A DNA stretch of 64,000 nucleotides from Nitrospirota bacterium (GTDB taxonomy: Bacteria > Nitrospirota > Thermodesulfovibrionia > Thermodesulfovibrionales > Dissulfurispiraceae). The notes beneath the pieces were generated by a model. That model was given only the letters and a program-made list of their open reading frames with translations, was not told where the DNA came from and did not search any database. Both the position numbers and the translations under genes were made by a program. Where the stretch lies: positions 192,001 to 256,000 of the forward strand of contig CAWBMP010000004.1 of assembly GCA_963790025.1 (NCBI GenBank). Reading direction: 5' to 3'. This document shows, in pieces, positions 16,316 to 42,542 of this stretch. Numbering within the stretch: position 1 is the first letter of the stretch; every line of letters begins with the position of its first letter.

Positions 16316-16597
16316 CTACTTCGTTGCACCATGCAATTCTTCATCTACCTTCTCAGTCAGGAACATTTTCAGGAGCGATTGGTAAGGAACATCTCTCTTG
16401 TTCGCGAGCACCTTAAGATGCTCAATAAGCGATTCAGGCAGACGAATCGAGATTGTCTTAGTAGATGGCTTTAAGTTCGGAAAAGCGACCCGCTTTGCCT
16501 TTGTATAGTCAATGTACTCAGTAGAATCATGAGTCGCCCAAAAATTGACTTCTTCTGCTTCGCTTTTAAACTTCGGTATCTTCTTGAATTTGCTCAT
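16316..16597 (-). CDS. brnA: BrnA/CopG-like antitoxin
   Basis: IPKFKSEAEE..FW.THD; TISIRLP...LK..A....VPYQSL. Confidence 0.85.
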   Translation of the reverse strand: MSKFKKIPKFKSEAEEVNFWATHDSTEYIDYTKAKRVAFPNLKPSTKTISIRLPESLIEHLKVLANKRDVPYQSLLKMFLTEKVDEELHGATK

Positions 16598-16889
16598 ATA
16601 CTCTTCTCTCCCTGCGGTTCATATCACGCGCCGAAATTATTCTTATCTTGGCTCCCCTCACTGTAAAAACAATGAAAAGTAATCTTCCGGTATCCGTTCT
16701 CCCTAAAACAAAGTATCGGTCTTCACCAATTGAATGTGACGCATCTTTCTTTACGATAATCGGATCGTTAAAGAATATCTCTTCGCATTCAACATGAGAG
16801 ACCCGATGTTTCTCCCAATTCTTCTTGATATTGCCCTCGTCCCATTCAAACCCTTCGAGTGAACCCAATATGTCGGACCAATCTTTCAT
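16566..16889 (-). CDS. brnT: BrnT-family ribonuclease toxin
   Basis: FEWDEGN..KN..KH.V; IRIISAR; overlaps the antitoxin gene. Confidence 0.9.
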   Translation of the reverse strand: MKDWSDILGSLEGFEWDEGNIKKNWEKHRVSHVECEEIFFNDPIIVKKDASHSIGEDRYFVLGRTDTGRLLFIVFTVRGAKIRIISARDMNRRERRVYEQIQEDTEV

Positions 16890-16902
16890 ATAGTATATTA
16901 TC

Positions 16903-16931
16903 AATATATACAAATAAGTTTTCCTTGTCAA
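16903..16931 (-). promoter_or_regulatory. sigma70 promoter of the brnTA operon
   Basis: TTGACA-N17-TATATT just upstream of the brnT ATG. Confidence 0.65.
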
Positions 16932-19837: not shown

Positions 19838-20021
19838 AGTGTAATGCAGGATATATCCCTGAAGCGAATCGCGGAGATTTGGTAACAGTTCTCGGCGAAG
19901 GGAGCGTTAAGCAGTCGCAATGTCCGAGCCCGGAGGGCGAGTTTTGCGACTGTAGCAAACAAGCCGTTATAACTGTCAAGACGGAGCGTCTGAGCGTAAG
20001 AGATATATCCTGCATTGCACT
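19838..20021. repeat. 184-bp palindromic MITE/REP-like element
   Basis: 20-bp terminal IR AGTGTAATGCAGGATATATC / GATATATCCTGCATTGCACT (1 mismatch); inner IR CAGTCGCAA/TTGCGACTG. Confidence 0.7.
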
Positions 20022-20062
20022 ATCCGAATTGCACTTATTCTCAAAATGTTAAAATAAACGAT

Positions 20063-21772
20063 ATGTCCGGCTACACTGGCAAGAGTTTGCGCGTCAATCT
20101 CACCACAAAGGAAATCTCAGTTTATGACACGCCCCCTGCCCTCTGCGATGAATTCCTGGGCGGCAGGGGCATGGGTGTTGCAATGATCACCGACCGCATA
20201 ACCCAACCCTGCGATTCTCCTGAAATGCCCCTGATCTTTGCCACCGGGCCGCTTGTCGGCACCGCTTCACCAACTTCAGGCCGAATGTCGGTTGTTTCAC
20301 GATCTCCCCTCACCGGCACCGTATTTGACTGTTCAGTAGGCGGACTCTTCGGCACTCAACTTAAAAAAGCCGGTTTCGATGTCCTTGAAGTAACAGGCTC
20401 TGCCGAACGATGGACTCTTTTGAATATCTGCAATGGCAGCGTTGCTTTCGAAGATGCCTCCCGACTAGCTGGAGAGAACACCTCGGAGGTGGGCAAAAAG
20501 ATTCATAGCAAAGGCTCATATGCTGCAATAGGTATCGCCGGAGAAAAAAAGGTCCGGTTTGCATCGATTGTTTTTGACGGGCATTACTGCGCCGGGCGCG
20601 GCGGCCTCGGTGCTGTGATGGGGGCAAAAAAGTTGAAGGCAATAGCAGTACGGGGTGAAGGGAGAATCCCTGTTGCCGATGAGGAAGGACTAAGGCAGGC
20701 ACGTGAAGACATAATGAGGCTTTTAAGGACCTCACCTGCCATATTCGGAGAATTCGGCCTATCGGAATTCGGCACTGCTGCCCTCGTCGATTTGATACAT
20801 GCAAGGAGAATGGAACCTACGGATAATTTCAAAAAAACGGTGTTCCCTTATGCATCAAATTACTCCGGGTATGCCATGAAAACACATTATAGTGCAAAAA
20901 AAACCGGATGTGCCGGCTGCCCCATCCTCTGTAAGAAAGTCGGATCAGGCGGAGAGGTCATCCCTGAATATGAAAGCGTTTCGCATTTCGGAGCCTTGAA
21001 CGGCTGCGGCGACATGGAAAGCATTGTCAAGGCAAATCGCATTTGCAATGAATTCGGTCTGGATACTATTACCGCTGCCTCCACCATTGCCTGTTATTCC
21101 GAAATTCACAATAAGCGACTTTCTCCGAAAGAGATGCTGGATTTGCTTGTACTCATAGGCTCCAGGGGACCGGGCTTAGGCGATGCGCTTGCCGAAGGTT
21201 CGCTGCGGTATGCCACGTCGATGGGCCATCCGGACTTAAGCATGTCTGTAAAGGGTCTTGAACTGCCTGCCTATGACCCGAGGGGCGCTTACGGCATGGC
21301 CCTGGCATACTCTACTTCTAACAGGGGAGGATGCCACCTGAGGGCCTATCCGATCAGCCACGAGATACTGAGAAAACCGGTTGCTACAGACAGGTTCTCC
21401 TTTGAAGGCAAGGCACGCATTATTTCGATAGCCGAGGACCTGAACGCCGTCATCGATTCCCTTACGGCGTGCAAATTTGTTTTTTTTGCCGCGAGCCTCG
21501 AAGAATATGCAAACGCTGTCAATGCGGTCACCGGCAAGGAATTTAGTGTTCAGTCACTTCTTAAAACCGGTAAACGCATATGGGACCTCGAACACAGCTT
21601 AAACGAAAAAAACGGATTTAACCAAACTCACGACGATCTGCCACAGCGCTTTTTCTCTGAGGAGGGGACTTCAAGCCCTAATATTTCAATATCTCCGATT
21701 GACCGTGATGCCTTCCTGAAGGCAAAGGAACGCTATTATAAAATCAGAGGCTATGGAAAAACTCATCAATAA
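20063..21772 (+). CDS. Aldehyde:ferredoxin oxidoreductase family protein
   Basis: LGGRG, SRSPLTG, AGRGGLGAVMGAKKLKA, CAGCPILC, PEYE, YDPRG, RGGCHL. Confidence 0.93.
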   Translation: MSGYTGKSLRVNLTTKEISVYDTPPALCDEFLGGRGMGVAMITDRITQPCDSPEMPLIFATGPLVGTASPTSGRMSVVSRSPLTGTVFDCSVGGLFGTQLKKAGFDVLEVTGSAERWTLLNICNGSVAFEDASRLAGENTSEVGKKIHSKGSYAAIGIAGEKKVRFASIVFDGHYCAGRGGLGAVMGAKKLKAIAVRGEGRIPVADEEGLRQAREDIMRLLRTSPAIFGEFGLSEFGTAALVDLIHARRMEPTDNFKKTVFPYASNYSGYAMKTHYSAKKTGCAGCPILCKKVGSGGEVIPEYESVSHFGALNGCGDMESIVKANRICNEFGLDTITAASTIACYSEIHNKRLSPKEMLDLLVLIGSRGPGLGDALAEGSLRYATSMGHPDLSMSVKGLELPAYDPRGAYGMALAYSTSNRGGCHLRAYPISHEILRKPVATDRFSFEGKARIISIAEDLNAVIDSLTACKFVFFAASLEEYANAVNAVTGKEFSVQSLLKTGKRIWDLEHSLNEKNGFNQTHDDLPQRFFSEEGTSSPNISISPIDRDAFLKAKERYYKIRGYGKTHQ

Positions 21773-22958
21773 ATACATAAATAAGCTCGAACAGCAGGGG
21801 CTTGCCCTCAAAGATAACATAACGTTCCTTGCGCTCGATGACGATCTGGTCTCAAACAGGACAATCGATGGTGAAACATTGATGCTCTCCAAACTCTTCT
21901 CGTTAATGAACATCAATGTCGTGCTCTTTGCCGAGCCCTCGGAACCTTACAAGAGTATCATACGGGAAATCACAAAACATGACGCACTCTGCCGGACACA
22001 GTCCAAGCTGGTACCGATGGATTGCGAGACGCGGACGTTCTTTCACGATATTCCTATAGTCAATGATTTTTCTCCTGAAGCGATTGCCGCTGCGCTTTCC
22101 CGCCGCAAATCGGCAATCATCAAAGACAGAGGGATTGTGACCTATGGGGTGGTAACTCCTGAACAGGCTTTTGTTTCATTAAGTTCCACCTGCTTTTCGA
22201 CGTTTGTAAAATATTTCTACGACAGCCTCGTCTATAGTGAAAAGTGCGCTGCCGGGAAGCTGCCCCCTGACGATGACTTCATAAAATCTTTCGGGACCAT
22301 TTCATCACATTCTGAAATGCGTCAGCCTGCCGTCTCAAACGCCTCACTCTCGCCGGGACCGCCTTTAAACGGCGATGACGTCGTTGCAATGCTTTCGGAG
22401 GCCGGCAGGGCAGTGGTAGGGCACCGGCTCGTAGACTCGTTTTTCGGGAATATATCATATATGTTCAATAATATCATCTATATAAGTGAGACGGGCAGTT
22501 CGCTGGACGAACTCGAATGCTGCATCGATGCCGTTCCTCTGGACGGGACATCTTCGGTAGGCATCACCGCATCATCCGAATTGTCGGCCCACAAAAAAAT
22601 TTATCAGGAAACCGGAAACACCGCTGTATTGCATGGTCACCCAAAGTTCTCCGTGATCATGTCGATGCGCTGCGGGAAGGAAGGCTGCGACAGGTCTTTG
22701 TGCCACAAAGTGTGTAAAGAGAAACGTTATATTTCGGAAACGCCCATTGTCTCAGGAGAAATAGGCACAGGACAAACCGGGCTCATGCATACCGTGCCGG
22801 CCGCAATCAAGGAGGGGAAAGGCGCCATAGTGTACGGGCACGGTGTTTTTGCCGCCGGACAGGGCAGTTTTCAAGGACCTTTCTCGATGCTTATGGAGAT
22901 AGAGAATACGTGCAAGAGCGAATATTTTAATGCCGTAAAAAACTGCATGGAGATATAG
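21753..22958 (+). CDS. Class II aldolase/adducin family protein, two-domain
   Basis: DSFFGNIS, SSEL.AH..IY, LHGHP, GHGVFA. Confidence 0.8.
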   Translation: MEKLINKYINKLEQQGLALKDNITFLALDDDLVSNRTIDGETLMLSKLFSLMNINVVLFAEPSEPYKSIIREITKHDALCRTQSKLVPMDCETRTFFHDIPIVNDFSPEAIAAALSRRKSAIIKDRGIVTYGVVTPEQAFVSLSSTCFSTFVKYFYDSLVYSEKCAAGKLPPDDDFIKSFGTISSHSEMRQPAVSNASLSPGPPLNGDDVVAMLSEAGRAVVGHRLVDSFFGNISYMFNNIIYISETGSSLDELECCIDAVPLDGTSSVGITASSELSAHKKIYQETGNTAVLHGHPKFSVIMSMRCGKEGCDRSLCHKVCKEKRYISETPIVSGEIGTGQTGLMHTVPAAIKEGKGAIVYGHGVFAAGQGSFQGPFSMLMEIENTCKSEYFNAVKNCMEI

Positions 22959-25554: not shown

Positions 25555-26388
25555 TTAAGTACCTGCGAGGCTATCCTGCGAGTGCGGATTTCGTTCGTTA
25601 ACAAAACCCATGATTGTTTGCCACCAGTGCAGGTCTACCCTGTTCGGCCAATCGTTATGCCCGGCCCCTTTAATCACCCACATCGCTTTGTTTCCGTCCA
25701 GTGATTGGTATAATGTATTTGCATGCCTTATAGGGATTATCTCATCCCGTTCTGCCCCTGCCACCGCAATTCTTCCCATGTAACTTTTGAGGTTCCTCAT
25801 ACTGTCATATTTGTCTTTCATAAACAATCGCACCGGCAACCATGGAAATTTAGATTGAGCAACGGACAGAAGCGAATCCCAAGGCGTTATGAGCACAACT
25901 CCGTCGATCTTTATAGACATCTTATTAACTACTGCTGCCACAACTCCGCAGCCGAGTGATTCTCCCAAGAGAAAAATCGGGGCGCCATATTGCTGGTAGG
26001 CCAGGCGTATTGTTTCTTTTGCATCGCTAACAAATGAATTCTCTCCCAATTCTCCTGCTCTTGCCCCATATCCTGGATATTCGGCAAGTATGACGAGATA
26101 CCCCAACTGCCCCATTGCCGTCAAATAATATGCCCTATCTGCCGCCGTGCCGGCGTTCCCATGAAAAACTATGATGGTGCCCTTCAGATTTTTGACAGCT
26201 TGATTGCCGATGAACCCTTTATAGTTAACGGGTCCAGAGGGCCAAAATTGCATATTTTTGAAGACGAGCTCGTCCTGGGAGGGTAACGATGAGTTTGGAT
26301 AATAAAGCAGCTTATGTTGAAGATCACAGCCCGACATAGCCATAAAGATATTCATTAGTATGAATATATATTTTCCAATGTTATTCAA
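25555..26388 (-). CDS. Alpha/beta hydrolase (ABHD13/17-like), possibly a lipoprotein
   Basis: FHGNAG, EYPGYG, GESLG, DEIIP, GAGHND. Confidence 0.85.
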   Translation of the reverse strand: MNNIGKYIFILMNIFMAMSGCDLQHKLLYYPNSSLPSQDELVFKNMQFWPSGPVNYKGFIGNQAVKNLKGTIIVFHGNAGTAADRAYYLTAMGQLGYLVILAEYPGYGARAGELGENSFVSDAKETIRLAYQQYGAPIFLLGESLGCGVVAAVVNKMSIKIDGVVLITPWDSLLSVAQSKFPWLPVRLFMKDKYDSMRNLKSYMGRIAVAGAERDEIIPIRHANTLYQSLDGNKAMWVIKGAGHNDWPNRVDLHWWQTIMGFVNERNPHSQDSLAGT

Positions 26389-26416
26389 AACAGAGCCGGT
26401 CTCTTCGGTTTGTTCT

Positions 26417-27253
26417 TCATTGTTTGAAAAATTCTTTTATTCTCTCCAGGAAAGACGTGCGGATTTTGGCCCTGAGGAAGAGGTCCCCGGGTTCGCCGCC
26501 TTTCTTGCCCTCCTGACCGAGACCCTTGAGTTTTATCTTCTGTCCGTCTCTTATCCCGGGCGGGACCGTGATCAGCAAATCCCTGGGTTGGCCCCGTTTC
26601 TTGTATAGGTATCGGACCTTGCCGCCGGCCACTGCTTCTTTGCGGGCAATCCCGATGACATCATATAAATCTTTTCCCCTTGTCGGCAGTTCCAGGCCCA
26701 ACCGGCGGGCAGCTAATCCCGTAAAGAAGTCCAGAATCCTGGCTATGATTACCGAAAGCAAAGGATGCAATTGCCGCATCTGATCAGGAGAAGTCTTCAA
26801 GCGGTCCTGATAAATTTTTCTCATAGGACCGTAAAAGTAGAAACCACTACCGGAAAATCCGGGGTCCTTGAATTCAAAGGTCCTGTAGCGGGAACCGTAA
26901 AAATTGTTCCGGCTAAAAATATCTTCCGGCCTGCTAAAACCGAATGCCTTGCTGAACTCTTCGAAAACCTGACCAATATCGGAACCGCGGAAAATATCCT
27001 GATCAGTATGTGACTGTCTGAACTGGTCCCTGGCGAAGGGGCCATACGCTTGTCTCAGCGCATCATACTCTTTCTTCTTCACAGGATTTGAAAGGACGGC
27101 ATAGGCCTCATTGATTGCCTTCATCATCTCCTCGCCTCCAGGATTCCTGTCGGGGTGATACCGGAAGGCGAGGTTCCGATAAGCTTTTTTTATCTCGCCG
27201 GGGCCTGCATCTTCTCCCACACCGAGAGTCTTGTAATAGTCCTTTTGGTTCAT
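26417..27253 (-). CDS. J-domain protein (DnaJ/CbpA-like, no zinc finger)
   Basis: KDYY.TLGV, YHPD, INEAYAVLS; C-terminal VPPGIRDGQKIKLKG..GDL. Confidence 0.9.
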   Translation of the reverse strand: MNQKDYYKTLGVGEDAGPGEIKKAYRNLAFRYHPDRNPGGEEMMKAINEAYAVLSNPVKKKEYDALRQAYGPFARDQFRQSHTDQDIFRGSDIGQVFEEFSKAFGFSRPEDIFSRNNFYGSRYRTFEFKDPGFSGSGFYFYGPMRKIYQDRLKTSPDQMRQLHPLLSVIIARILDFFTGLAARRLGLELPTRGKDLYDVIGIARKEAVAGGKVRYLYKKRGQPRDLLITVPPGIRDGQKIKLKGLGQEGKKGGEPGDLFLRAKIRTSFLERIKEFFKQ

Positions 27254-27255
27254 CG

Positions 27256-27951
27256 CTATCGCTTGATCTCGATCCGGTGGAACGCTTCGGCGAGTTCGCA
27301 CTCAGCGCCTTCAGCCATAGAGCAGGACCACTCTCTCACCCAAGCCTCCAGATCTGCCACTTTGAGCTCTTTTACCTGGCTTTCATGGCAGCGCAGCGCC
27401 GCAACTTTCAGATCGAAGGTCGCCGATATATCGGAGCGGTAATTAATGTCTTCCGAACCAAAGAAGAGCATCTCGCCGACCTTGTGAGGTCCGAGGCCTT
27501 CCTCCAGCAGTTCCGGATAGGACAGGTGGTCCCGCGCTAAGGGGAAGACGGCGTCGAGTGTCGCCTGCCCCACAATCCTGTGGTCCCGGTGCCAGATGTA
27601 CCGGTGGTAAGGGTCCGAGGTGACAACTGTTTCTGGACGATATGTACGAATTGTACGCACGATCATTTTCCTGAATTCGGAAGTGTCTTCCAGCCCCTGA
27701 TCAGGAATCCGGAGAAAGACGACTTCCCGTACGCCCAGGACTCTTGCAGCAGCTTCCTGTTCTCTCTCTCTTATTTGGGCCAGGAGCCCGGGTTGCATCG
27801 TCTCGTCCGATGTTCCCTTCTCCCCGCTCGTACAGACAACATATACTACCTGTTTGCCTTCCAGGACCCAGCGCGCCACCGTTCCGGCGACGCCAAATTC
27901 GGCATCGTCAGGATGCGCTATGATGACGAGTATATCAGCAGAAGCTGCCAT
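27256..27951 (-). CDS. PIG-L family N-deacetylase (MshB/BshB-like)
   Basis: AHPDD, TSGEKG, R..E...AA..LGV, HRDH, ALRCHESQ. Confidence 0.9.
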   Translation of the reverse strand: MAASADILVIIAHPDDAEFGVAGTVARWVLEGKQVVYVVCTSGEKGTSDETMQPGLLAQIREREQEAAARVLGVREVVFLRIPDQGLEDTSEFRKMIVRTIRTYRPETVVTSDPYHRYIWHRDHRIVGQATLDAVFPLARDHLSYPELLEEGLGPHKVGEMLFFGSEDINYRSDISATFDLKVAALRCHESQVKELKVADLEAWVREWSCSMAEGAECELAEAFHRIEIKR

Positions 27952-27973
27952 ATTACAACTCCCTGTACCATTT

Positions 27974-29257
27974 TTATGCAACACAAGGCTGGAGGGCAGT
28001 CGTGTACTCCTGCACGACGGCGGATGCAATGTCAGCCCAGCCATAACTTAAAACAGAAGAACGTATTTCATCACGGGACAAGACGCAGTTAGTCGGGTCT
28101 ACGATGAATTTTCGGATTGCCGATGCGAAGGAATGCGGGCTCGGCGTGTCAACAAGAAGTCCCGTCTTTCCGTCCCTTATCAAGGTTTCCATTGCACCTA
28201 CGCGCGCGGCAATAACAGGCGTTCCGCAGGCAAGCGCTTCGAGTGCGACGAGGCCGAAACTTTCGTAGTAAGACGGTACGACGACTACGTCGGCGGCGCT
28301 GTAATACAAAGGGAGAAGATCATGACTGACCCTGCCCTGAAATCTCACTATATCATCTACAGAGGCACGGCGGGCGAGCCGCGAAAGTTCAGCGGATGCA
28401 TGCGCCTGCGGACCGTCACCGCCGACTATCAAAAACATCAGTCCACGGTGAGAGCGCAGATGTGCGGCCGCAGATACTAGTCTGTGGAGCCCCTTGACAG
28501 GGGCGAACCTGCCAACGTAAAGAACAAGAAACCGGGTATTATGAAGTCCCAGTTCCTTTCGCGCCAGATCTTTCGCTACAGGCCGGAACCGTTCGAGGTC
28601 AACGCCGCAGGGGACCATGCCGATCTTTTCTCGCGGCACCCCATAGTATCTCACAAGCAGGTCCTTCTCCCTATCAGTTGCGGCCATAATCCGGTCGCTT
28701 TTACGGGCCAGCCTCTTTTCGGCAATCAGACGCAGGGCCGGTTCTCTCTCCTGGCTGCAGGCAACACGCTTTGCGATGCCGGTCGTGTGGAACATCACGA
28801 CATGAGGGATGTCCCACCTGTTTTGGGCAAGAAACCCCACTTCGCCGGATATCCAATAGTGGCTGTGGATGAGATCATAGCACACATTGTTTCTCGTAAT
28901 ATACTTCTCGAGCGATTGAAACGTTTCCGGCAGATGTCTGTACAGCATGCTCTTTGTGACATCCCCCTTGCACCCTATGCCCAGATGAATAAGGCGCACA
29001 TTCCCGGACATAAACATCTTAGTATCCATTATGCCGGCGCCGGCGCACGTATAAATGTCGACGCTGTGGCCCGCTCTTCCAAGTTCCCGCGAGAGTTCAC
29101 GGATATATACGCTCATGCCGCCCGTGTCCTCTGTCCCGAGTTCGCCGAGCGGACTAGAATGGATGCTGAGAGCAGCGATCCTCAATGGCCGCACATTAGA
29201 TAACTCCCCGTGTCCTTTCAAACCGGCTTCTGAAACAACAATGGAAGTTGGAGTCAT
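27974..29257 (-). CDS. GT4 glycosyltransferase, MshA-like
   Basis: SIHSSPL..LGTEDTGGMSVY, HSHYW.SG, PCGVD, PSYYESFGLVALEA.ACGTPV. Confidence 0.85.
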   Translation of the reverse strand: MTPTSIVVSEAGLKGHGELSNVRPLRIAALSIHSSPLGELGTEDTGGMSVYIRELSRELGRAGHSVDIYTCAGAGIMDTKMFMSGNVRLIHLGIGCKGDVTKSMLYRHLPETFQSLEKYITRNNVCYDLIHSHYWISGEVGFLAQNRWDIPHVVMFHTTGIAKRVACSQEREPALRLIAEKRLARKSDRIMAATDREKDLLVRYYGVPREKIGMVPCGVDLERFRPVAKDLARKELGLHNTRFLVLYVGRFAPVKGLHRLVSAAAHLRSHRGLMFLIVGGDGPQAHASAELSRLARRASVDDIVRFQGRVSHDLLPLYYSAADVVVVPSYYESFGLVALEALACGTPVIAARVGAMETLIRDGKTGLLVDTPSPHSFASAIRKFIVDPTNCVLSRDEIRSSVLSYGWADIASAVVQEYTTALQPCVA

Positions 29258-30261
29258 TTCAGAAGTGCCTCGCAGTGAAGCAGTCTCACCGGCCGACCGC
29301 CGAGGCGTCCTTTGTATGCCTCACCGCCCCGAAGAAAATTAAACTTTTTCCTGTTTCTTTTTATGCTTTCCCGTATGCAGAAGACCTTGCTCAGGAGTCC
29401 CACACTGAGATGCTCATAGCGCCGGTCATAGCCGTTATTGTAAAGGTAAACCGTCGAGTGATAGTCGAAACACATCGTTGAGGCTACGGGCTTATCGTTC
29501 AAGTCTAAAAAAAATAGACTTAAGAGCCCGGCCTCGGCCATTTCGACTGCTGCAGACCTGAAAAATAACTCGACATCGCCTGACATGAACCCGGCCTTAT
29601 CCTTCCTATTGGACCGGAAAAGAGCTATGAAAGTGTCCAACGCATGTGCAACATCCTTCTTGTCCTCGATAACGCGCAGCCCGACATGACCGGCACTCTC
29701 CAACCGCCTGAGCTTCCGGCGCGTCTCGTGCCGCTCCCTTCCCGACAGGAGGTCGAGATATCCTTCCCACGTGCCGGCCAGGTCCATTTCATAAAGCACA
29801 TCAACGTGGTCCCAGGAGACATCGCAACCGAGGAACGCAGAGTATGCCTGGAGGCATAAGATGATGGTTGAATCGGCACGGACGCGTCCCGCATCGAAAC
29901 GACTTATGCCCTCGCCTCTGAGGTAGTCAAAAAGGGTCGACAAAAATTCCCTCTCCCTTGAGGGCGCAACGATGAAATCAGTGTAATCGATCAGGTCGCT
30001 GTCGCCGATGAGGTGAGCTGTGTGTCCTCTGACCTCAAGCGGCGCCACACCGAGGACCTCATCGTGCTGTCTCACAACGCATAGGTGAGTTTCCAGGCCT
30101 TGTGCGAAATACGACCGCCAGGTACCAAGCAATGGGGGAAGCATAAACAAACAATCCCACTTGAGCTGGCTCCCTGCAACCTGCCAGTAGCTCTCAAGAT
30201 CGTACAGAGGCTCGATGCTTACCCACCCTCCCGGTGCTGCAATTTCAGCCTTATCTTTCAT
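29254..30261 (-). CDS. CelD/BcsL-like GNAT (Acetyltransf_6, FemAB-related fold)
   Basis: DY.DFI, WEGYL..L..R.R...RRKLRRL, YLYNNGYD, FNFLRGGEAYK.RLG. Confidence 0.85.
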   Translation of the reverse strand: MKDKAEIAAPGGWVSIEPLYDLESYWQVAGSQLKWDCLFMLPPLLGTWRSYFAQGLETHLCVVRQHDEVLGVAPLEVRGHTAHLIGDSDLIDYTDFIVAPSREREFLSTLFDYLRGEGISRFDAGRVRADSTIILCLQAYSAFLGCDVSWDHVDVLYEMDLAGTWEGYLDLLSGRERHETRRKLRRLESAGHVGLRVIEDKKDVAHALDTFIALFRSNRKDKAGFMSGDVELFFRSAAVEMAEAGLLSLFFLDLNDKPVASTMCFDYHSTVYLYNNGYDRRYEHLSVGLLSKVFCIRESIKRNRKKFNFLRGGEAYKGRLGGRPVRLLHCEALLK

Positions 30262-31522
30262 ACCACCGCCACCCTTCCTGAGTATCATCGACTTCAATGT
30301 TCACCCGCTTCAGGCAATCACGGACCGCATCGGCCTCATGCCACTGGTTATTTTTCCTGAATAGAGCTCTTAATGCAAGTAATTCTTCCACGAGTGGCGC
30401 GAGACACTCGTAACTGCTTTTCGGCGCTGAGGACAGGCGCATTCCTAAAAGAACTATGAATTCGTGAAAGAGATCTCTTGCCTGGGAGATGACCTCCGGT
30501 CCCTCCTTATCCTGCTGGGCCTGCCAGATTAGCCTATCGAGGGCCAAAACAGCGTTGGCAGCATCCCGGGCATCTTCGTCGAGGCCTTTGTGGAACCCAA
30601 CTTCGACGGCATGCACGGCGCCCCAGAAGTCTGTCTCATCAGACGAGGACCGAGCACTCAACACGCTGTTCACTCCCGCCTCAAAAGTCTGCGACTTCCC
30701 GGGACCTCCCGGCGATTTGAGTGCTCGGCTCCCTTCTCTGTCTGAAAAGGCACTGAGCGGGAATTGTTCTCCCCTGACGAATGTCCTCTCATATGTACCA
30801 TGTCTCAAAGTCACAGAGCCGATACCTTTTATCGAGATTTCCTTCCTGTCAATATCTATGATGCAGGCCGTATGTTCGTCGATACCAAGGATACTCATAT
30901 CCTCCGGCAGCATTGATTCGAGCAACCTGAACCGGCCCTCTCCCATAAAGCAGAAACGCGTGTCGTGTGTCCCTCCCTCGGCGTTATTCCAGTGAGGGAC
31001 CACAACCGTATTCAGCCCGAAATGACCTAGTATCTTGAGGCCTTCAGTCCAATGTGGCTCCTGACCGACCTTGTAAATCTCGTATACAGGCAGGGTAAAA
31101 CTCCCTGCTGTTAGTGCCGCCGCGCTGGCGGCGACAAGACATGCGCCTTTTTCGATCCGCCGCTGCAGTATCCCTGGTATGGGAGTCCCCTGCCACTGCC
31201 TAATGGCATATGTCGGGCTACCGGGTCCGACCAGGACATAATCCGCCTCTTTCAGGGTGCGAAAGGCCTGCTCTCTTTCAAGGGCCGGTATGTCTTTCGA
31301 CTTGTACGATATGACTGCCATTGGATGGCCGACACTCACTCGGAAATATTCTACCGCCCGTTCGGACAACTGGTCGGCGTTCAACTGGAACCCCGCAGGA
31401 GTATCGAGAAAGAACGCTTTGGGAGAAATGCCGAGTCGTGCAAGTATGTCCTTGTGGACCTCGACCATTGTGGCTGTGAGTTCACCTGAGCCCATGAGAA
31501 CAATCAAACCCTTTTTATGCAT
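30251..31522 (-). CDS. Peptidase S51 (cyanophycinase/PepE-like) domain fused to a cysteinyl-tRNA synthetase C-terminal domain
   Basis: LMGSGE, GPGSP, AASAAA, VPHWNN, GIDEHTA; tail RKNNQWHEADAVRDCLKRVNIEVDDTQEGWRW. Confidence 0.75.
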   Translation of the reverse strand: MHKKGLIVLMGSGELTATMVEVHKDILARLGISPKAFFLDTPAGFQLNADQLSERAVEYFRVSVGHPMAVISYKSKDIPALEREQAFRTLKEADYVLVGPGSPTYAIRQWQGTPIPGILQRRIEKGACLVAASAAALTAGSFTLPVYEIYKVGQEPHWTEGLKILGHFGLNTVVVPHWNNAEGGTHDTRFCFMGEGRFRLLESMLPEDMSILGIDEHTACIIDIDRKEISIKGIGSVTLRHGTYERTFVRGEQFPLSAFSDREGSRALKSPGGPGKSQTFEAGVNSVLSARSSSDETDFWGAVHAVEVGFHKGLDEDARDAANAVLALDRLIWQAQQDKEGPEVISQARDLFHEFIVLLGMRLSSAPKSSYECLAPLVEELLALRALFRKNNQWHEADAVRDCLKRVNIEVDDTQEGWRWYER

Positions 31523-31598
31523 ATTCTAATTTGAGCGTGTTTCATGGCCGTTGTCAAGTGCCGGGACGCATCCTCAGTAGGGCAGCCGAAACCCGAGT

Positions 31599-34438
31599 TT
31601 ATTTTACAATCCACTGCGTGCCGCAGATATACTGGAAATCGCATGTCGGGCACACCTTCTTACTGTCGGCTGCCTGTCCGAAGGGAACCAGAGGATCTAT
31701 TATTTCGTTGAGTGCCTTGAAGATCAGTATCTTCAGTGGTGCAAACATTTCTGCCGGCGATGAACCATCAAATAGGGAAAGTTCAACATCTCTACTTATC
31801 ATCGAGCGGCCCAAAAGCAGAAAAAGCGCATCGAGCTTCTCTATCGTTCTTTTTTTCTTTTCAGTATAAAGCAAGAGGTAAAATGGAAGCTGGATACTAC
31901 CTATAGCCTTGTCCCAAGTCTCTCTTTTGCCGATGTCGAGTTTTTCCATATCAATCTTCAGATAATTTGGGCTGGAGCCTGTCTTGTAATCGACTATGAC
32001 TGTCTTATCGTCCCGCTGCTCAACGCTATCCAGCCTTCCGCTCAAATTAAAGGAACCAACATTTACCCGTATCGGCTCCTCGCTTTGCAAAACAGTCACT
32101 TTTTTTTCTTTCACAAGAGGAAGATAGTAATATTTAAGAACGTCAGCCATGTGTCTCTTGACCTGCCTCTTTAGAAAATAGAGAGCTCCAGAAGGGTCTT
32201 TGCCATATTTTTGCTCAAAGAGCCCTTCCACAATAGAATCCATTTGCCTGATGATTATGTCTGTTTCCTCTAAAGGCCTGCCTTTCTTGTCGAAGAAATA
32301 TCGCATCAAGACAGCATGGACGAAATTTCCCAAATCATCTCGTTCGATGTCTCCTGTCATCTCTTCCTTACGGCTGAGTCCGAGTACAGAGGCGTAGTAG
32401 AACTGAAGCGGGCACTTGAGATACCTGTTCAGCGCGGTCGCACTGTAGCAGAAGTCTCTTAGGAAGGCTACCATCCCATCGGTCTTTGCAATCGGGCCGG
32501 GAGCGCTGTTTATTAGTTTCACCTGATACTGGACAGGTCTGATGTAGGACATTACATCGGTTATCTTGTCTTTTTTCTGTCTGTCCCAGAGAAGCTTCTC
32601 AACGAACCTCGACCGCTCTGTTTTGTCGTTTTCGATGAAAAAGAGATGGACCTTTTTTGCCCCTTTAAGGAGTGCATCGAAATAGTATGCGGTGAGCTTG
32701 TCCCTGTCCATATAAGTGGGAAGCCCCAGTATCTCCCGGGCCTTGAAGGGGAGGAGAGTTTCTTCTTTCCTCGTATCGGGCAGGATGTCCTCATTCGCGT
32801 CCAGGACAAAGACTGTCTCGAACTTCAGGTTCCTCGTCTCGAGGGACCCCAGCACCTGCAGTCCCTTGACAGGCGTGCCTGAAAAAGGGGTATGGACGGT
32901 CATTATGTATTTCCTTAAGAATACGAAATAGCTGGACCTTTCCGAAAAGGCGATGTCTTTCATCATAGATCTCAGAAGTACATCAAGAGATGCTATAAAG
33001 GACTCGGAGAATGGATGAAAAAGGGGGTGAAGTCTTGCCGTGCTGTTATTGAAGATAAACAGTAGCGCCTCGATGCATTTACTCGCAAAGTCTCTGATGT
33101 TTTGGAAGGAAATGAATCTTTCTATTGTATTTTTGTGAATGACTTTCAGATGCTCCCTAAGGTGTTCTTCCCTGGTCCCCTTTTCGTATTCCGGGAGCTT
33201 TTTCAGAATGTCCCCAAAAAGAGTTTCGTTCCTCTCGATCTCTTTTATAGTGGTAAAGGTCCTGGCCTTGTGCTTGAGAAGCTCCTCCTCGATAGTATGG
33301 AACATCACTCGTGTCGTCTCGGACTTACCGTTGAAATAAATATTCTTTGTGTAGGGATGAAGAATGAATTTCAAGTAATCGGGGATATAAATCCTGTCGC
33401 CATCCATCGAATTCACCAGTTCCATCAGGTTATTGAGAAAACCGAAGACAGGGGTACGATGTAATGGATACCCTAACGACACGTTGTATTCATCCTCGTG
33501 CATGTCCGAGATCCCTGGCGCAAGAGAGGGAAAAGGGTCTCTGACGAAGGCAGGACAATGACTGTGTTCTCGTCAGGATTATTAACCGCGTCGCCGTTTG
33601 TCCCAAGGATTTTCCCAAGCGCCAGAACCTGGCCATGAGTGTCGGGACTGCTGTAAAAGTGCACCTCCGGTCCCGTGTCCACGCTTTCCATTATCTCGTG
33701 GGTGATGCCAAGCTCCTTGAGTTTCTCATTCAATCCCATACCATCCTGGAAGATAAGGACTGTATTGTCGTATAAGAGCAGCTTTCGAAACAGGGCCTTT
33801 TCTGCATTAGTGAGAGCAAAGAAGCCCGCGAAGATTATACTTTCAAAGCTGCTGAGCACGGCTTTGTATATCTTCTCAGCAGCAATCTGATATCTCCTTG
33901 ACCTGGTCGAAAACCCCAATGCATCTATTTCTCTATAGAACTGCTCATAGAAATAAGACAGGGACTGTAACCCGATGATCGTCTGCTCAGGCATACCCTC
34001 TGTAATGAAGGATTCGATTCCCTTGACCATCTGGGGCTTGATGCCTTCAATAGTCAACTCCTCGATGTCACGATATATTTTGAGCCCAAGGGGGAAAAAA
34101 CTATCAGGAGTCATGAACCCTTTTCCGCCAAGCGGCGTCGCGGCCTTCCTGTGTATATCGTAAAGCAGGGCAACAGCATCTATGGTCTCAATCTTCTTTC
34201 CAGGGCTTAACTCATAGAATAGCGAATCCATAAACTCATCCATCGAAAAGACCATAGGCGGGATGAAGCTTGCATTGACCTTCGCGGCCAGCGCCTTTCT
34301 AAGAAAGTGGGACGGCCTTTTGCCGGGAAAAACCACAAGGGATGAAGAGTAATCCCTTTCAGTTCCAGTCAAGTGGGCCAGCACTTCTTCTATCAAGCTT
34401 TTGCCGGGTGGAATGATAACCGTGTTCAGTGTATTCAT
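31599..34438 (-). pseudogene. AddB-like PD-(D/E)XK nuclease with Fe-S cysteines, split by a 1-nt frameshift near 33514
   Basis: ORFs 33473-34438 and 31599-33503 join if one G is added; YSATAL..YLKCP, GRLD..E..IVDYKTG, CPTCDFQYIC. Confidence 0.8.
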
Positions 34439-37400
34439 CCGGCCTTCTCCACTTCGCCGAGGTCGACGAAGGCAATAATACCCTTGACGGTTTTTCCGGT
34501 ATAGACATCACCCAGTATGTTCATGTAATTCTTCAACTGGGCCCTGTATTTTTCTATCGCTTCCTTGTCCTTTCCTGTCTTATAGTCGATCACAATAACG
34601 CTGTCATTGTCTATTACGACCCTGTCCATCCTGAAAAGCCTGCCGGCATTGTCAGAATACTCCTGCTCTTTCCTGGTCACCATCCCCGGCACTGCACTGA
34701 AATACCTTTCTATCTCTTTGTTCCTTACTAATGCAATGACGATAGCTTTGATCTCTTTGTCGGAATAATCCGATCCGGTCTCATCCTTTACACGACTTAT
34801 GATCTCTTGCAGTTCGGTTTCAAAATTGTCCTTCACGCAGTCAACAAAGAACAGTACTCTGTGGATGAACTCACCCCTCCTTTTTTCATCTAATGTCAGG
34901 AACTTTTCGGGACCGGCCCGGAATTCAAGCTGCCTGTGGCGGTACAGGAGCTGACATGAAGAAGGAGTCCCTTGTGCTTCCGCCGGCGGGACCTCAGGAC
35001 TATATTCAGGTTTGGCCGAAGGAGAAAAGTCGCCTGCCGGGAGTAAAACGAACGGATAACCCTTGTCATTGCTTTTGACCCCGATCACGTAAAGCTCACT
35101 CTTGGGACGGGTGAACCCCACATAGAGGCTGTTAAGCCTGTTCACCATCTCACTCATCCTCTCTTTATCATAGAGAATCCGGAGGGTCTCGTCACAGGCT
35201 GCAGTAGTCTTGTTGATCTTGAGGAGGCAGACCGTCTCACCCTTGTCCTCGATAATATATTCAAAGCCCCTGTTTCTTACTTCATAGAGGAGGACAATAA
35301 CAACGGGGAACCCCAGCCCTTTGGATTTGTGTATGGTCATGACCTGAACAGCATTAATGTTCCTGGGGACGGCCATGTCCCATTCAGACTCGCCCTTTTC
35401 ATCGTCCGTTGCGGTCTCCAGAAAATCCTTGAGGCTGTTGAATCCTCCTCCTTCAAAGTCTTTGACCACCTCAAGTATCTTAACGAGTGCCGCCTCCTCA
35501 GACGGCATGTTCTCAAAAACACTGAATACGGCAAAAACCTCTGTGACCAGGTCGTAAAGCGGCAGGAACCCGGTTGCCCTGAAAAGACCGTCGAAATACT
35601 GTTCCCAAAGGCCGCTGAACTTCTTTTGAAACGCCTTATATAAAGGAGGCTTCTTTCTATGCGTGAAGCAGAATTCCCTCAGCCCCTCGATACCGTCCCC
35701 AGGATGGTCCTTCGCAATCGTACTCGTGAAAACATCGCCCAGAATGAAGACGCCGAATGAAAAGTCGTCAGTAGGAGAGTCGAGGAAGTTCATGAGCGCG
35801 ATAATCTCTCCGGTTATCTTGCGCCTCCTCACATCCAGGCTGCTGTATGATATAAAGGGGATTTCCTTCTCGTTCAGCCATGTCGTGGCACTGACTGCAT
35901 ATTCGTTCGTCTGAGTAAGCACGGCAATATCACCGTACCGGTAACCGCGTGTGTGCAGTTCTTTTATGATTTCCTGGATCTTTTCCCGCTCAGCAGGTTC
36001 TTCGTCGTTCCGTTCGTGAAGGGAGACCTCTACATACCCATCGTCGCCTTTATCTTCTTTCGGCTTTTGTATGTATTCGGTAAGACCACTTCTGCGTCCG
36101 GCCTCTCTGTATTCATCGTTCCCGGGAAGTTTCTCTTTGAAAACTCTTTCGTTGAACTGAAGTATCCTCTTTCTGCTCCTGTAGTTAGTGTCAAGCTCCC
36201 TGACGGCATGTTCGGCTGAAGGAAATGGATTTGTCTCTTCGAGTCCTTTCATGATGGTGTAGTCTGCGTTCCGGAAGCCGTATATAGCCTGCTTTGTGTC
36301 CCCAACCGCAAAGAGGCTTCCTCCCTGGGAAAGCGAGTTCTCGATGAGGGGCAAAAGATTCTCCCACTGTATGGGCGAGGTGTCTTGAAACTCATCGATG
36401 AGGAAATGGAAAATAGTGTCGCCGAGCCTGAAATAGACATCGGGGACCATTGAACTGTTGAGATACTCGGCAAGCTGCATGTTGATGTCCTCGATGAATA
36501 CCTTGCCTTGCTGCCTCTTCACCAAATCCACAGTCCCGCTGAAGGCCTGATAGGCCTTCACGTACGGCACACAGCGAGTGCGGACGAAACAAATGGTGTA
36601 CTGCCGGGTCAATTCCCCGACATCAGACCACAAATTTAATATCCTGTCATATGCAGCCTGCTCCCTGCCTTCACCTTTTTTCGGCTTGTTAACTGGAGGA
36701 TTGGCAAATCCCTTTCCTATAAGATCTGGAAATCTTTTCTCCCTAACCAGAGACAAGATAGTCTTGTAAGAGGAATTGCCGCGTTCCTTTAGGCCCGAGA
36801 CCCCGATCTCTTTTTCAATGTCGTTAACAAGCGCAATTATTTTGTCTTTAACTTTGTTAAGGTCTTCACCGTAATCCTCAATCGCAGCCAATTTCCCCTT
36901 GGATGAAAGTTTCCTGTAAATTTTCTTTATCTCGTCAAGAAGCACCGTTGATGGGTCCCATAAATAGGCTTCAGTGACCCTCTTCTGCTCCAGCAGCAGG
37001 TCCACGATCTCTTCGATGCAGACCGCCTCGGTCGTCCCATGCCTGACATTTCGCATAAAAAGATTGAAGGAGTAGCCCATCAGCAAATCGTTGTTTATTA
37101 AGATATCAAAGTCCGGGTTATACCCAAAATCGATAGCCGAGGCCTTAAAAACGGTCGCCATGAAACTGTCGATCGTCTTCACCTGGAAATCCGAGTAGCT
37201 GTCAAGTATCTCTCCTATCAGGAGGCCGGCCTGTTCTCGCATGCCTCCAACATCGAGCGAGGTTATCTTTGAGAGTTCCCGTACCTTTGCCTCGTCCCCG
37301 AAATAGACCTCCTTCAGCCACGAGAGCGTCCTCTCCTTCATTTCTTTTGCGGCATTGTTAGAAAAGGTTATTGCAAGCATGTTCCTGAGACTGTTTCTCG

Positions 37401-37551
37401 GGACCCTGGCGGAAAGAAGAAATTGGACGAACCTCTCTGTGAGGGCATAAGTTTTCCCGGAGCCGGCCGATGCCTTAAGGACCGTGAAGTGGGGAAACTT
37501 CAAATCTGTATCTTTTATTAAAAACGGTTCTCCCATATGCTCCTCACCCAA
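34435..37551 (-). CDS. AddA-like UvrD helicase with C-terminal nuclease
   Basis: ASAGSGKT, ITFSNNAA, IDEFQDTS, GDTKQAIYGFR, NYRS, MTIHKSKGL, IDYKTG. Confidence 0.92.
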   Translation of the reverse strand: MGEEHMGEPFLIKDTDLKFPHFTVLKASAGSGKTYALTERFVQFLLSARVPRNSLRNMLAITFSNNAAKEMKERTLSWLKEVYFGDEAKVRELSKITSLDVGGMREQAGLLIGEILDSYSDFQVKTIDSFMATVFKASAIDFGYNPDFDILINNDLLMGYSFNLFMRNVRHGTTEAVCIEEIVDLLLEQKRVTEAYLWDPSTVLLDEIKKIYRKLSSKGKLAAIEDYGEDLNKVKDKIIALVNDIEKEIGVSGLKERGNSSYKTILSLVREKRFPDLIGKGFANPPVNKPKKGEGREQAAYDRILNLWSDVGELTRQYTICFVRTRCVPYVKAYQAFSGTVDLVKRQQGKVFIEDINMQLAEYLNSSMVPDVYFRLGDTIFHFLIDEFQDTSPIQWENLLPLIENSLSQGGSLFAVGDTKQAIYGFRNADYTIMKGLEETNPFPSAEHAVRELDTNYRSRKRILQFNERVFKEKLPGNDEYREAGRRSGLTEYIQKPKEDKGDDGYVEVSLHERNDEEPAEREKIQEIIKELHTRGYRYGDIAVLTQTNEYAVSATTWLNEKEIPFISYSSLDVRRRKITGEIIALMNFLDSPTDDFSFGVFILGDVFTSTIAKDHPGDGIEGLREFCFTHRKKPPLYKAFQKKFSGLWEQYFDGLFRATGFLPLYDLVTEVFAVFSVFENMPSEEAALVKILEVVKDFEGGGFNSLKDFLETATDDEKGESEWDMAVPRNINAVQVMTIHKSKGLGFPVVIVLLYEVRNRGFEYIIEDKGETVCLLKINKTTAACDETLRILYDKERMSEMVNRLNSLYVGFTRPKSELYVIGVKSNDKGYPFVLLPAGDFSPSAKPEYSPEVPPAEAQGTPSSCQLLYRHRQLEFRAGPEKFLTLDEKRRGEFIHRVLFFVDCVKDNFETELQEIISRVKDETGSDYSDKEIKAIVIALVRNKEIERYFSAVPGMVTRKEQEYSDNAGRLFRMDRVVIDNDSVIVIDYKTGKDKEAIEKYRAQLKNYMNILGDVYTGKTVKGIIAFVDLGEVEKAG

Positions 37552-41284: not shown

Positions 41285-42487
41285 TTAAAGTTTAGCGGCT
41301 TTCAATTCAGCCATGATCGCTTCGGAAAGTCTCTTCAGGGATTGTCCCGTTTTCTTCGAAAGCGCTTTCAGGTCGGCATATTCGGGAGAAATATTGACAA
41401 TAGCACCTTCACTCCTTGCTATTTTCACCCTAACTTCGCCGAATCCGGTCTTGACTTTCCTGACCTCCCTTCCGAGCACCTGACGCCCGGCCTTATAGAA
41501 CCTGAGGCCGATGGTAGTAGTTTCGTTAAATATCAAAGAAGTAAGACGCTCCAGTTTGTGCTCGTCGGTAATTACAGTCAGCTTTATTGCAGGCCTCCCC
41601 TTTTTCATAATTATATTCTCCAAAAACACATCAAGAGCACCGGCTTTAAAGAGCTTATCGATAATATCCTCGTAGAATTGCGGATTCATATCATCTATAT
41701 TGGTCTCGATAACAACTACCTCTGTATCAGACGATCTTCTATCAGCCGCACTACTGTCTGTTCCGGCTGTTTTTCCGACAAATAGCCTGAGAACGTTTGG
41801 AACATGCTCTAAATCCCTGTTGCCGGCCCCATAGCCTATGACCTCCCTCCGCATAGCCGGTACAGGGAGCATTACAGCCTCCAACCCTGCTATAAGCACA
41901 GCACCTGTAGGAGTCGTCAACTCAAACGGGATACCGGATACATACGTCGTATACCCCTTCAAAAGCTCGGCGGTTGCCGGGGCCGGCACCGGCAATGTTC
42001 CATGTGCGCATTTTACCGTGCCGCTGCCCAGGTTAATGGGTGATGTATATACTTTCTCCACTCCGAGGAGATCGAGAGCGATGAGTGTTCCAAAGATGTC
42101 GACCATGCAATCTATTCCGCCAAGCTCGTGCAGATGCACCCGTTCGAGACTGTGGCCGTGCACTTTTGCCTCTGCCTCAAAAAGCCTTTTGAAAACCTTG
42201 AGCCCCTGATGTTGTATTTTCGCAGACAGTTTGGCCTTATTAATAACGGCCCTGAGATCTTTCCACCGCAAGGGCGAAGCATTATATCCCTTGTCGAGTA
42301 CGACATCCACCTTGGTCGCTGCGACACCCAAACGTAAAACCTTTTTTGACGTGAGATGGTACTGCCTGACAGGTAGCTTCCTGAGCAATGACCCGAGTTT
42401 TTCTATGCTGACACCGGCATCCACCAGGGCCCCGAGGCACATATCGCCGCTTATGCCGGCAAAACAGTCAAAATAGGCTATCTTCAT
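41285..42487 (-). CDS. larC: Nickel pincer cofactor nickel insertase LarC
   Basis: YFDCFAGISGDM.LGAL, AEAKVHG, HLHELG, CAHG.LPVPAPAT, ETNIDD, MKKGRP, PEY. Confidence 0.93.
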   Translation of the reverse strand: MKIAYFDCFAGISGDMCLGALVDAGVSIEKLGSLLRKLPVRQYHLTSKKVLRLGVAATKVDVVLDKGYNASPLRWKDLRAVINKAKLSAKIQHQGLKVFKRLFEAEAKVHGHSLERVHLHELGGIDCMVDIFGTLIALDLLGVEKVYTSPINLGSGTVKCAHGTLPVPAPATAELLKGYTTYVSGIPFELTTPTGAVLIAGLEAVMLPVPAMRREVIGYGAGNRDLEHVPNVLRLFVGKTAGTDSSAADRRSSDTEVVVIETNIDDMNPQFYEDIIDKLFKAGALDVFLENIIMKKGRPAIKLTVITDEHKLERLTSLIFNETTTIGLRFYKAGRQVLGREVRKVKTGFGEVRVKIARSEGAIVNISPEYADLKALSKKTGQSLKRLSEAIMAELKAAKL

Positions 42488-42542
42488 CACAGTATTGTAC
42501 AATATAATCAGAAGTATAATCACATCTAAAGAGTGAAGGGTC

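Follow-up and report, generated by a model that had tools for sequence, protein, structure and literature searches.

How could cysteine be joined to a sugar amine by a gene cluster that resembles the one for mycothiol and yet carries no MshC, the cysteine ligase of that pathway? The question is raised by four genes in a 64,000-nucleotide stretch of DNA (hereafter the window) from a Nitrospirota bacterium of the Dissulfurispiraceae (assembly GCA_963790025.1, contig CAWBMP010000004.1, positions 192,001 to 256,000). All four lie on the minus strand of the window: a fusion gene (30251-31522), which encodes a 423-aa protein that joins an S51-fold hydrolase to a C-terminal anticodon-reading module of cysteinyl-tRNA synthetase (CysRS); a gene for a two-domain GNAT protein of family PF13480 (Acetyltransf_6) (29254-30297, 347 aa from a TTG codon); a gene for an MshA-like GT4 retaining glycosyltransferase (27974-29257, 427 aa); and a gene for an N-acetylglucosaminide deacetylase of the PIG-L/LmbE family (27256-28044, 262 aa from the first ATG). 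The existence of this cluster is confirmed, and it is widely distributed and conserved. We propose, tentatively and with a confidence somewhat short of even, that the four genes constitute a conserved module for the biosynthesis of a low-molecular-weight thiol akin to mycothiol, namely a cysteinyl-glucosaminyl-inositol; in this module the fusion protein would add cysteine taken from Cys-tRNA(Cys). The thiol reading is well supported by gene context, and the delivery of cysteine from Cys-tRNA(Cys) is plausible on the sequence features described below.

The fusion protein and its CysRS-like tail

A first-pass annotation of the window had described four co-oriented genes with two overlaps and one 22-bp gap, and this arrangement is recovered between 27256 and 31522 with the start codons that are favoured here. 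For the GNAT gene, a purine-rich stretch precedes the ATG at 30261 (335 aa), which is the more likely start, and for the deacetylase gene the more likely start is the ATG at 27951 (231 aa), which is preceded by AGGGAG and gives a protein of the same length as its orthologues. With these two starts the successive spacings are an 11-nt overlap, a 4-nt overlap and a 22-nt gap.

The fusion protein consists of three parts. Residues 1-267 (30722..31522, minus strand) form an S51 (class I glutamine-amidotransferase-like) hydrolase domain with a predicted triad of Ser133, His177 and Glu216; residues 268-296 (30635..30721, minus) form a predicted disordered linker of about 29 residues; and residues 297-423 with the stop codon (30251..30634, minus) form the CysRS-like tail, in which a small alpha/beta domain comes after a bundle of helices. 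The structure was modelled from a 90-sequence alignment (A2) with a predicted local distance difference test score (pLDDT) of 90.9, whereas prediction from the single sequence reached only 44 and was unusable. The alignment-based model shows a compact domain (1-267), the linker, and a helical bundle that closes with a short stretch of beta hairpin (297-423); the linker has a pLDDT below 50 in this model, and in a second alignment (A1) it is variable in length and poorly conserved. Hidden Markov model (HMM) searches, together with this model, thus recovered both the S51 and the CysRS domain that had been read from the 423-aa sequence.

For the first domain, PF03575 (Peptidase_S51) matches residues 7-223 with 26.5 bits, above its cut-off of 23.9. 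Foldseek searches of the PDB matched the domain to 6nqc, a peptidase from an acI-B1 actinobacterium (E 8e-15, TMt 0.83), and further to dipeptidase E, PepE and cyanophycinase, the TMt values ranging from 0.70 to 0.83, and a profile of 90 fusion relatives compared with PDB chains retrieved the same S51 protein, 6nqc, at E 2.3e-13. In the profile alignment with 6nqc, Ser133 (in AASAAA), His177 (in PHWNN) and Glu216 (in DEHTA) occupy the positions of its S, H and E; among the 90 relatives, 89 retain the serine, all 90 the histidine and 88 the glutamate. Membership of the S51 family is established by the Pfam score, the fold and the Ser-His-Glu triad.

The tail had been recognized by a C-terminal CysRS signature; the motif is present, and the spacing first written before IEV was one residue short, the actual segment being RKNNQWHEADAVRDCLKRVNIEVDDTQEGWRW. 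PF23493 (CysS_C) matches residues 375-419 of the window sequence taken alone with 17.7 bits, below the cut-off of 23, and two relatives of the fusion, P0181 and P0269, pass this cut-off with 34 and 27.6 bits. Only positions 346-464 of the cysS model TIGR00435 align with the fusion, at residues 306-421 (E 3.3e-6). Homology to the C-terminus of CysRS is borne out by the profile of the 90 relatives, which retrieved CysRS 8qhp (E 2.2e-14) and residues 328-460 of Escherichia coli CysRS (1li5/1u0b, E 1.7e-12), and by Foldseek, in which the tail matched the tRNA(Cys)-bound E. coli enzyme (1u0b_B, E 3.7e-4). A motif search found no HIGH or KMSKS-like string in the fusion, as had been stated before; the Rossmann catalytic domain is lacking as well, and the protein cannot activate cysteine.

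The residues by which such a tail could read an anticodon were compared with those of E. coli CysRS, whose numbering was checked on the K-12 cysS translation, the mapping being taken from the HMM alignment. In the passages found of a 2026 paper (PMC13449415), Arg427, Trp432, Asp436 and Arg439 of the E. coli enzyme were randomised to alter its anticodon specificity, and Arg427 is described as hydrogen-bonding O6 of G34. The corresponding residues of the fusion are R389, W394, D398 and R401. Among the 90 relatives the first position is R in 87 and K in three, the second is aromatic in 88 (W 48, F 23, Y 17), and the third and fourth are D and R in all 90. This conservation of contact positions provides the strongest single argument that the tail may recognize tRNA(Cys). 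A search with the tail alone returned 52 proteins, all with the size and domain make-up of the fusion family, and showed no other architecture within the limited reach of the word index.

Conservation of the cluster and a proposed pathway

The fusion family is large. Of 8000 candidates scored in a word-indexed protein search, 7645 were relatives at E <= 0.001. When representatives clustered at 50% identity were searched exhaustively, 1477 reached E <= 0.001, and 463 of these E <= 1e-30. Among species genomes, at least 595 contain a relative, out of 599 pattern matches. The named members belong to Nitrospirota, Thermodesulfobacteriota, Chloroflexota, Planctomycetota and Actinomycetota, and carry in their sources names such as 'peptidase E', 'cyanophycinase-like exopeptidase' or 'type 1 glutamine amidotransferase-like'. 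Because the family is abundant and annotated by generic names only, assigning a function to it would change the annotation of thousands of genes.

The surroundings of the fusion gene were surveyed in the best 80 loci, with up to 8 kb on each side, by tblastn with the window proteins, a gene being taken as present when at least 150 residues aligned with at least 35% identity. Conservation of the cluster, on which the first-pass annotation had made its proposal depend, is evident: among the 46 loci with at least 7 kb of downstream flank, 31 carry the GNAT, GT4 and PIG-L genes together, seven carry part of the set (three GNAT and GT4, two GT4 and PIG-L, one GT4 only, one GNAT only) and eight carry none. 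Of 15 loci with 3.3-7 kb of flank, seven have all three partners, six a part and two none, and the remaining 19, with less than 3.3 kb, are uninformative. The gene order is colinear with the window in 33 of the 38 fully flanked loci that bear any partner. Complete clusters occur in records labelled Nitrospirota, in many labelled Thermodesulfobacteriota, and in Nitrospinaceae, Deferrisomatales, a Hyphomicrobiales metagenome-assembled genome and others; the same gene set beside the fusion gene in other phyla indicates an association that is more than chance.

The architecture of the fusion is likewise constant, since most tblastn matches in the 80 loci cover query residues ~3-420, and the shorter matches that were checked (L039 and L061) stop at a contig end. 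Just two longer forms were found, P0307 (768 aa) and P0308 (856 aa). As Rosetta-stone links both were rejected: the C-terminal extension of P0307 has no Pfam family or GNAT similarity and looks like read-through, and P0308 is joined to part of an MFS transporter and gives no link. They are probably gene-calling artefacts rather than real fusions.

A dedicated cysteine ligase was sought at the same loci. Neither the window nor any of the 80 loci gave a tblastn match at E <= 1e-3 to E. coli K-12 CysRS, used as the complete protein or in pieces, and no class I synthetase or BshC family was found among the 51 other window open reading frames (ORFs) scanned. From the 80 loci, 917 crudely called ORFs were clustered and one representative per recurrent cluster was annotated; no ligase-like family recurs in the 25 commonest clusters, 13 of which were annotated by one representative each. 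The lack of MshC claimed at first holds, therefore, for the 64-kb window and the 80 loci, as a local and not a genome-wide statement.

Both sugar enzymes are of the kinds found in thiol pathways. The MshA model TIGR03449 matches the window GT4 with 336.1 bits, under its equivalog cut-off of 462.5, and the next family follows at 140 bits, about 196 bits lower; BshA scores 105.4 (cut-off 273.7) and the sucrose-phosphate synthase domain 97. Among the GT4 proteins of related clusters the MshA model is matched by 40 of 40 at E <= 1e-30 (best 8e-111), and the model for sucrose-phosphate synthase by four of 40. The S-x-H-S-S-P-L...D-T-G-G-M-S-V-Y motif described for this protein was found as SIHSSPLGELGTEDTGGMSVY. 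The deacetylase matches PF02585 (E 1.2e-33, 116.8 bits against a cut-off of 28.2) and contains the two expected motifs, AHPDD at residue 43 and HRDH at residue 152. Its NCBIfam scores are 101.4 for BshB1, 86 for BshB2, 60 for Mca and 46.5 for MshB, all under the cut-offs, which stand at 182.5 bits for BshB1 and 224 bits for MshB (TIGR03445). A glucosamine-phosphatidylinositol product, similar to glycosylphosphatidylinositol, was also considered and seems less likely, given that no membrane protein recurs in the core cluster and that the MshA model dominates.

In the proposed pathway, the MshA-like GT4 would move N-acetylglucosamine from UDP-N-acetylglucosamine to inositol phosphate, and the PIG-L enzyme would then strip the acetyl group and free the amine. 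The third step would be the attachment of cysteine by the fusion protein, without an ATP-dependent ligase of the MshC type. The CysRS-derived tail would grip Cys-tRNA(Cys) through its GCA anticodon, and the flexible linker would let the acceptor end reach the S51 site, where Ser133 would accept the cysteinyl group as an acyl-enzyme and hand it to the amine of glucosamine (GlcN). In an optional fourth step the PF13480 GNAT could acylate the cysteine amine from an acyl-CoA, as MshD does in mycothiol synthesis. Since there are four conserved core proteins for four expected steps, the fusion is favoured by elimination as the cysteine-adding enzyme; moreover, the passage from ester to amide is favourable without ATP, which fits the absence of a ligase. 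The identity of every substrate, the dependence on tRNA, the chemistry of the acyl-enzyme and the way in which fusion and GNAT share the work are what we infer from these data.

Alternative readings and recurrent neighbours

Several observations weigh against cysteine transfer by the fusion protein. We know of no S51-fold enzyme that uses aminoacyl-tRNA, and the S51 proteins returned by the fold search are peptidases (PepE, cyanophycinase, dipeptidase E). No tRNA-Cys gene was found in the window or in the 60 loci scanned (L001-L060), so that a tRNA, if one is used, would have to be the housekeeping tRNA. In eight of the 46 fully flanked loci all three partners are missing from the vicinity of the fusion gene, and relatives of the fusion occur in Actinomycetota, for example in Acidithrix ferrooxidans, where, according to the part consulted of PMC6282198, MshC exists, which is a warning against a simple role as 'MshC substitute'. 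Three further points on this side concern the GNAT, the glycosyltransferase and the name given to the tail, and are discussed with the readings that they favour.

The solitary loci and the actinomycetotal members make attractive a reading in which the fusion is a hydrolase and not a ligase, the cysteine ligase being encoded elsewhere in the genome and the tail sensing tRNA(Cys), for instance its charging state. Such an enzyme might be an amidase that frees cysteine from Cys-GlcN or cleaves S-conjugates, or it might be a Cys-tRNA(Cys) deacylase. PepE, dipeptidase E and cyanophycinase act beside a residue with a free amine, and in 20 loci (e.g. L020:7263-7976) a stand-alone 237-aa S51 (cyanophycinase-like) protein is encoded on the same strand immediately before the fusion gene, an arrangement suggestive of hydrolase paralogues within this system. 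The similarity of this protein to the S51 domain of the fusion is remote (BLASTP E 4e-6 over 54 residues), and it may be an amidase of the same system. Most often, however, the fusion gene opens a biosynthetic cluster that is colinear and has reading frames that overlap, and no ligase candidate recurs nearby; nor, to our knowledge, is there a precedent for a hydrolase regulated by a fused anticodon reader, and we consider this reading unlikely.

Another possibility is that the same product is made with the PF13480 GNAT as a Fem-type, Cys-tRNA(Cys)-dependent transferase, the fusion recruiting or presenting tRNA(Cys) through its tail while its S51 domain edits or hydrolyses a side product; N-acylation would then be unneeded, as in bacillithiol. 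GNAT-fold enzymes of the Fem, MprF and VlmA types are established aminoacyl-tRNA transferases, small-molecule pathways included, in the passages found of PMC2922099. In the Atlas clusters nearest to the GNAT, PF04339 (FemAB_like) occurs on 19-33% of members; the family is related to the Fem-type transferases, and the GNAT could be the transferase instead. It also follows the fusion gene, directly or after an insert of Gfo/Idh/MocA genes, in most sufficiently flanked loci (tblastn). The first-pass label 'FemAB-like GNAT' is right as to the GNAT family and loose as to FemAB: PF13480 matches residues 188-329 (E 6.4e-27) and is alone in doing so, the FemAB family PF02388 giving no match at E <= 0.01. 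The sole NCBIfam match at that threshold is the crotonyl transferase BspF (31.5 bits, far under its cut-off), and no match to the MshD (mycothiol synthase) model appears; a GNAT profile compared with PDB chains retrieved no solved relative at E <= 0.1 (best E 0.24), and no Fem structure. BspF, the one named relative, is a transferase of the acyl-CoA type and, for all its weak score, would speak for an acylating GNAT and hence for our proposal. In addition, a transferase GNAT would leave the strictly conserved Ser-His-Glu triad of the fusion without a role. We regard this division of labour as improbable, if worth keeping in view. Two predictions of a complex between the fusion (A2) and the GNAT (A3) both scored 0.00, which gives no verdict and is counted neither way.

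The genes that recur around the cluster bear on the nature of the product; their counts are lower bounds, because ORF calling loses genes to antisense ORFs. The window holds the minimal version among related loci. The commonest additions lie between the fusion gene and the GNAT gene and encode a 550-aa ThuA-like plus Gfo/Idh/MocA protein (30 loci) and a 336-aa Gfo/Idh/MocA protein (21 loci), both with inositol 2-dehydrogenase among their best NCBIfam matches, below the cut-off. This insert, absent from the window cluster, is seen for instance at L006:9400-12055, L024:9400-12082 and L074:9229-11947 and in some 20-30 further loci, and the pair may change the cyclitol, e.g. from myo- to scyllo-inositol. 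Myo-inositol-phosphate synthase genes were found in two ORF clusters (6 and 5 loci, e.g. L024:15989-17095 and L057:15172-16527), one representative of which, an inositol-3-phosphate synthase, matches the 'mycothiol_INO1' model with 409 bits, under its cut-off of 638. Histidine phosphatases, also in two ORF clusters (9 and 4 loci, e.g. L043:5103-5723 and L040:841-1500), could fill an MshA2-like step, whose enzyme is unidentified in mycothiol synthesis. A GloB-like hydrolase of the metallo-beta-lactamase fold is present in 12 loci (e.g. L015:12417-13058), and EamA transporters in 5 and 4 loci. Finally, a glutaredoxin domain fused to a flavoprotein similar to thioredoxin reductase is encoded upstream of the cluster in five loci (L020:5845-7116, L008:4274-5515, L045:6026-7267, L067:5820-7145 and L036:670-2289); its glutaredoxin part is most like mycoredoxin (E 3.3e-19), its flavoprotein part matches TIGR01292 with 314 bits, below the cut-off, and the whole is a candidate disulfide reductase for the predicted thiol. 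Inositol supply, a GloB-like enzyme and a redoxin-reductase are company typical of a low-molecular-weight thiol, and the recurrent neighbours together point to one that contains inositol.

It is against this background that a product other than a thiol has to be weighed, namely a GlcN-inositol or another conjugate of an amino sugar (for instance an osmolyte, the head group of a glycolipid or a metabolite resembling an aminocyclitol), with the tail as a borrowed helical domain without specificity for tRNA(Cys). The best PDB matches of the GT4 are MshA of Corynebacterium glutamicum (CgMshA, 3c48; E 4e-69, 237 bits) and the sucrose-phosphate synthase of T. elongatus (6kih; E 1.2e-66, 229 bits), scores so nearly equal that sequence alone does not settle the acceptor. 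A K, a Y, a T and an R of the window GT4 align with K78, Y110, T134 and R154 of CgMshA, reportedly its inositol-phosphate ligands. A sugar-phosphate acceptor such as fructose 6-phosphate could, however, use ligands similar to those of MshA, as indicated in the part consulted of PMC7264703. Every thiol-pathway equivalog model scores under its cut-off, and the presence of two Gfo/Idh/MocA genes in as many as 30 loci suggests additional chemistry on sugars or cyclitols. As to the tail, the NCBI name of the actinobacterial members, 'CysS/YqeB C-terminal domain-containing protein', implies that the small terminal domain occurs also outside CysRS, in a protein without a known tRNA role. On the other side, the four anticodon-contact positions are kept in 87-90 of the 90 relatives, and the GloB-like and mycoredoxin-reductase neighbours recur. 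The close linkage with the PIG-L gene argues for an N-acetylglucosamine donor rather than for sucrose-phosphate synthesis, and the MshA model is the one matched by all the GT4 proteins compared. Identification of the GT4 as a sucrose-phosphate synthase was set aside on this linkage and on the model scores, and is kept alive by the similarity to 6kih. A non-thiol product seems to us quite improbable, and the cysteinyl-glucosaminyl-inositol remains our preferred assignment.

The immediate flanks of the cluster are not part of the system that recurs: an AddAB-like helicase-nuclease is encoded upstream and a J-domain protein downstream, and by tblastn neither lies beside the cluster in the 80 related loci. 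The AddA/AddB-like genes (31599-37551, minus strand) directly adjoin the cluster, and their AddB-like part is made of two overlapping ORFs, 33473-34438, without a Pfam match, and 31599-33503, with a PD-(D/E)XK domain, which could reflect a frameshift or a real split. The G+C content is 0.51-0.54 in 2-kb windows over the cluster (26001-32000) as compared with 0.41-0.51 elsewhere in the window, a difference that may hint at horizontal acquisition. A scan for promoters and terminators over 26000-32000 gave counts inside the shuffled expectation. Farther away, an IS110-family transposase (14798-15997) adjoins a BrnT/BrnA-type toxin-antitoxin pair (16316-16931) on the minus strand. An aldehyde:ferredoxin oxidoreductase followed by a class II aldolase-like protein (20015-22958, plus strand), a LarC-type nickel insertion protein (41285-42643, minus strand) and a NapC/NirT cytochrome (46480-47985) are also encoded in the window, and together these genes fit an anaerobic lifestyle.

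Comparison with known thiol pathways and aminoacyl-tRNA transferases

Full-text literature searches, which left most subscription journals outside, gave no account of an S51-CysRS-tail architecture or of a tRNA-dependent route to a GlcN thiol, in agreement with the first-pass statement that no such route had been described; tRNA-dependent cysteine transfer of this kind is, as far as we found, an undescribed hypothesis. The part consulted of a 2022 review of synthetase paralogues names CysRS* and MshC as the only paralogues of CysRS (PMC9437257), and a 2010 survey of synthetase-like peptide ligases, which covers MshC and the Fem-type enzymes, leaves the fusion unmentioned in the passages found (PMC2922099). 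If the proposal is true, the product would be a candidate redox buffer for large anaerobic lineages, such as sulfate reducers and Nitrospirota, that have no assigned glutathione, mycothiol or bacillithiol pathway; the mycothiol chemotype would reach far beyond Actinobacteria; and a hydrolase fold with its own anticodon reader would represent a new use of aminoacyl-tRNA outside translation. The chance that the key enzyme is of a categorically new kind is substantial. The stronger claim, that the fusion founds a new class of aminoacyl-tRNA-dependent transferases making the major thiol of Thermodesulfobacteriota, Nitrospirota, Nitrospinota, Chloroflexota and other lineages, is possible and at present doubtful.

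With the mycothiol pathway (Ino1, MshA, MshA2, MshB, MshC and MshD) the cluster shares a GT4 whose best model is MshA, a deacetylase of the PIG-L family and a two-domain GNAT, and related loci share the inositol-3-phosphate synthase and a mycoredoxin-like domain. It differs in carrying the S51-CysRS-tail fusion and, in the window and the 80 loci, no MshC-like catalytic domain; in its GNAT, which belongs to PF13480 and has no MshD match; in equivalog scores that all lie below the cut-offs; and in its hosts, which are Nitrospirota, Thermodesulfobacteriota and other phyla, whereas mshA-D were confined to Actinobacteria in the part consulted of a 2018 survey (PMC6282198). With the bacillithiol pathway (BshA, BshB and BshC) it shares the logic of a GT4, a PIG-L deacetylase and the addition of cysteine, and the top NCBIfam matches of its deacetylase are BshB1 and BshB2; its GT4, in contrast, is far closer to the MshA than to the BshA model, and the gene context favours inositol over malate.

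The fusion protein itself departs from both of its parent families. Its tail shares with CysRS (1li5/1u0b) the helical bundle and the anticodon-binding domain together with the positions of R427, W432, D436 and R439. From the S51 family, represented by PepE, the cyanophycinase CphB and 6nqc, it differs by carrying a CysRS tail; its identity to the solved members is merely 13-20%, and a segment after the catalytic His that is highly conserved in the fusion family, NAEGGTHDTRFC, is partly absent from 6nqc. Known aminoacyl-tRNA transferases read mainly the acceptor end and the aminoacyl moiety. The Fem, MprF and VlmA enzymes, as presented in the passages found of PMC2922099, share with the proposed route the concept of moving an amino acid from aminoacyl-tRNA to a non-ribosomal acceptor, small molecules included, and the GNAT of the cluster belongs to a neighbouring Pfam family; in the reading that we favour, the transfer would instead be carried out by a serine-hydrolase fold equipped with an anticodon reader of its own.

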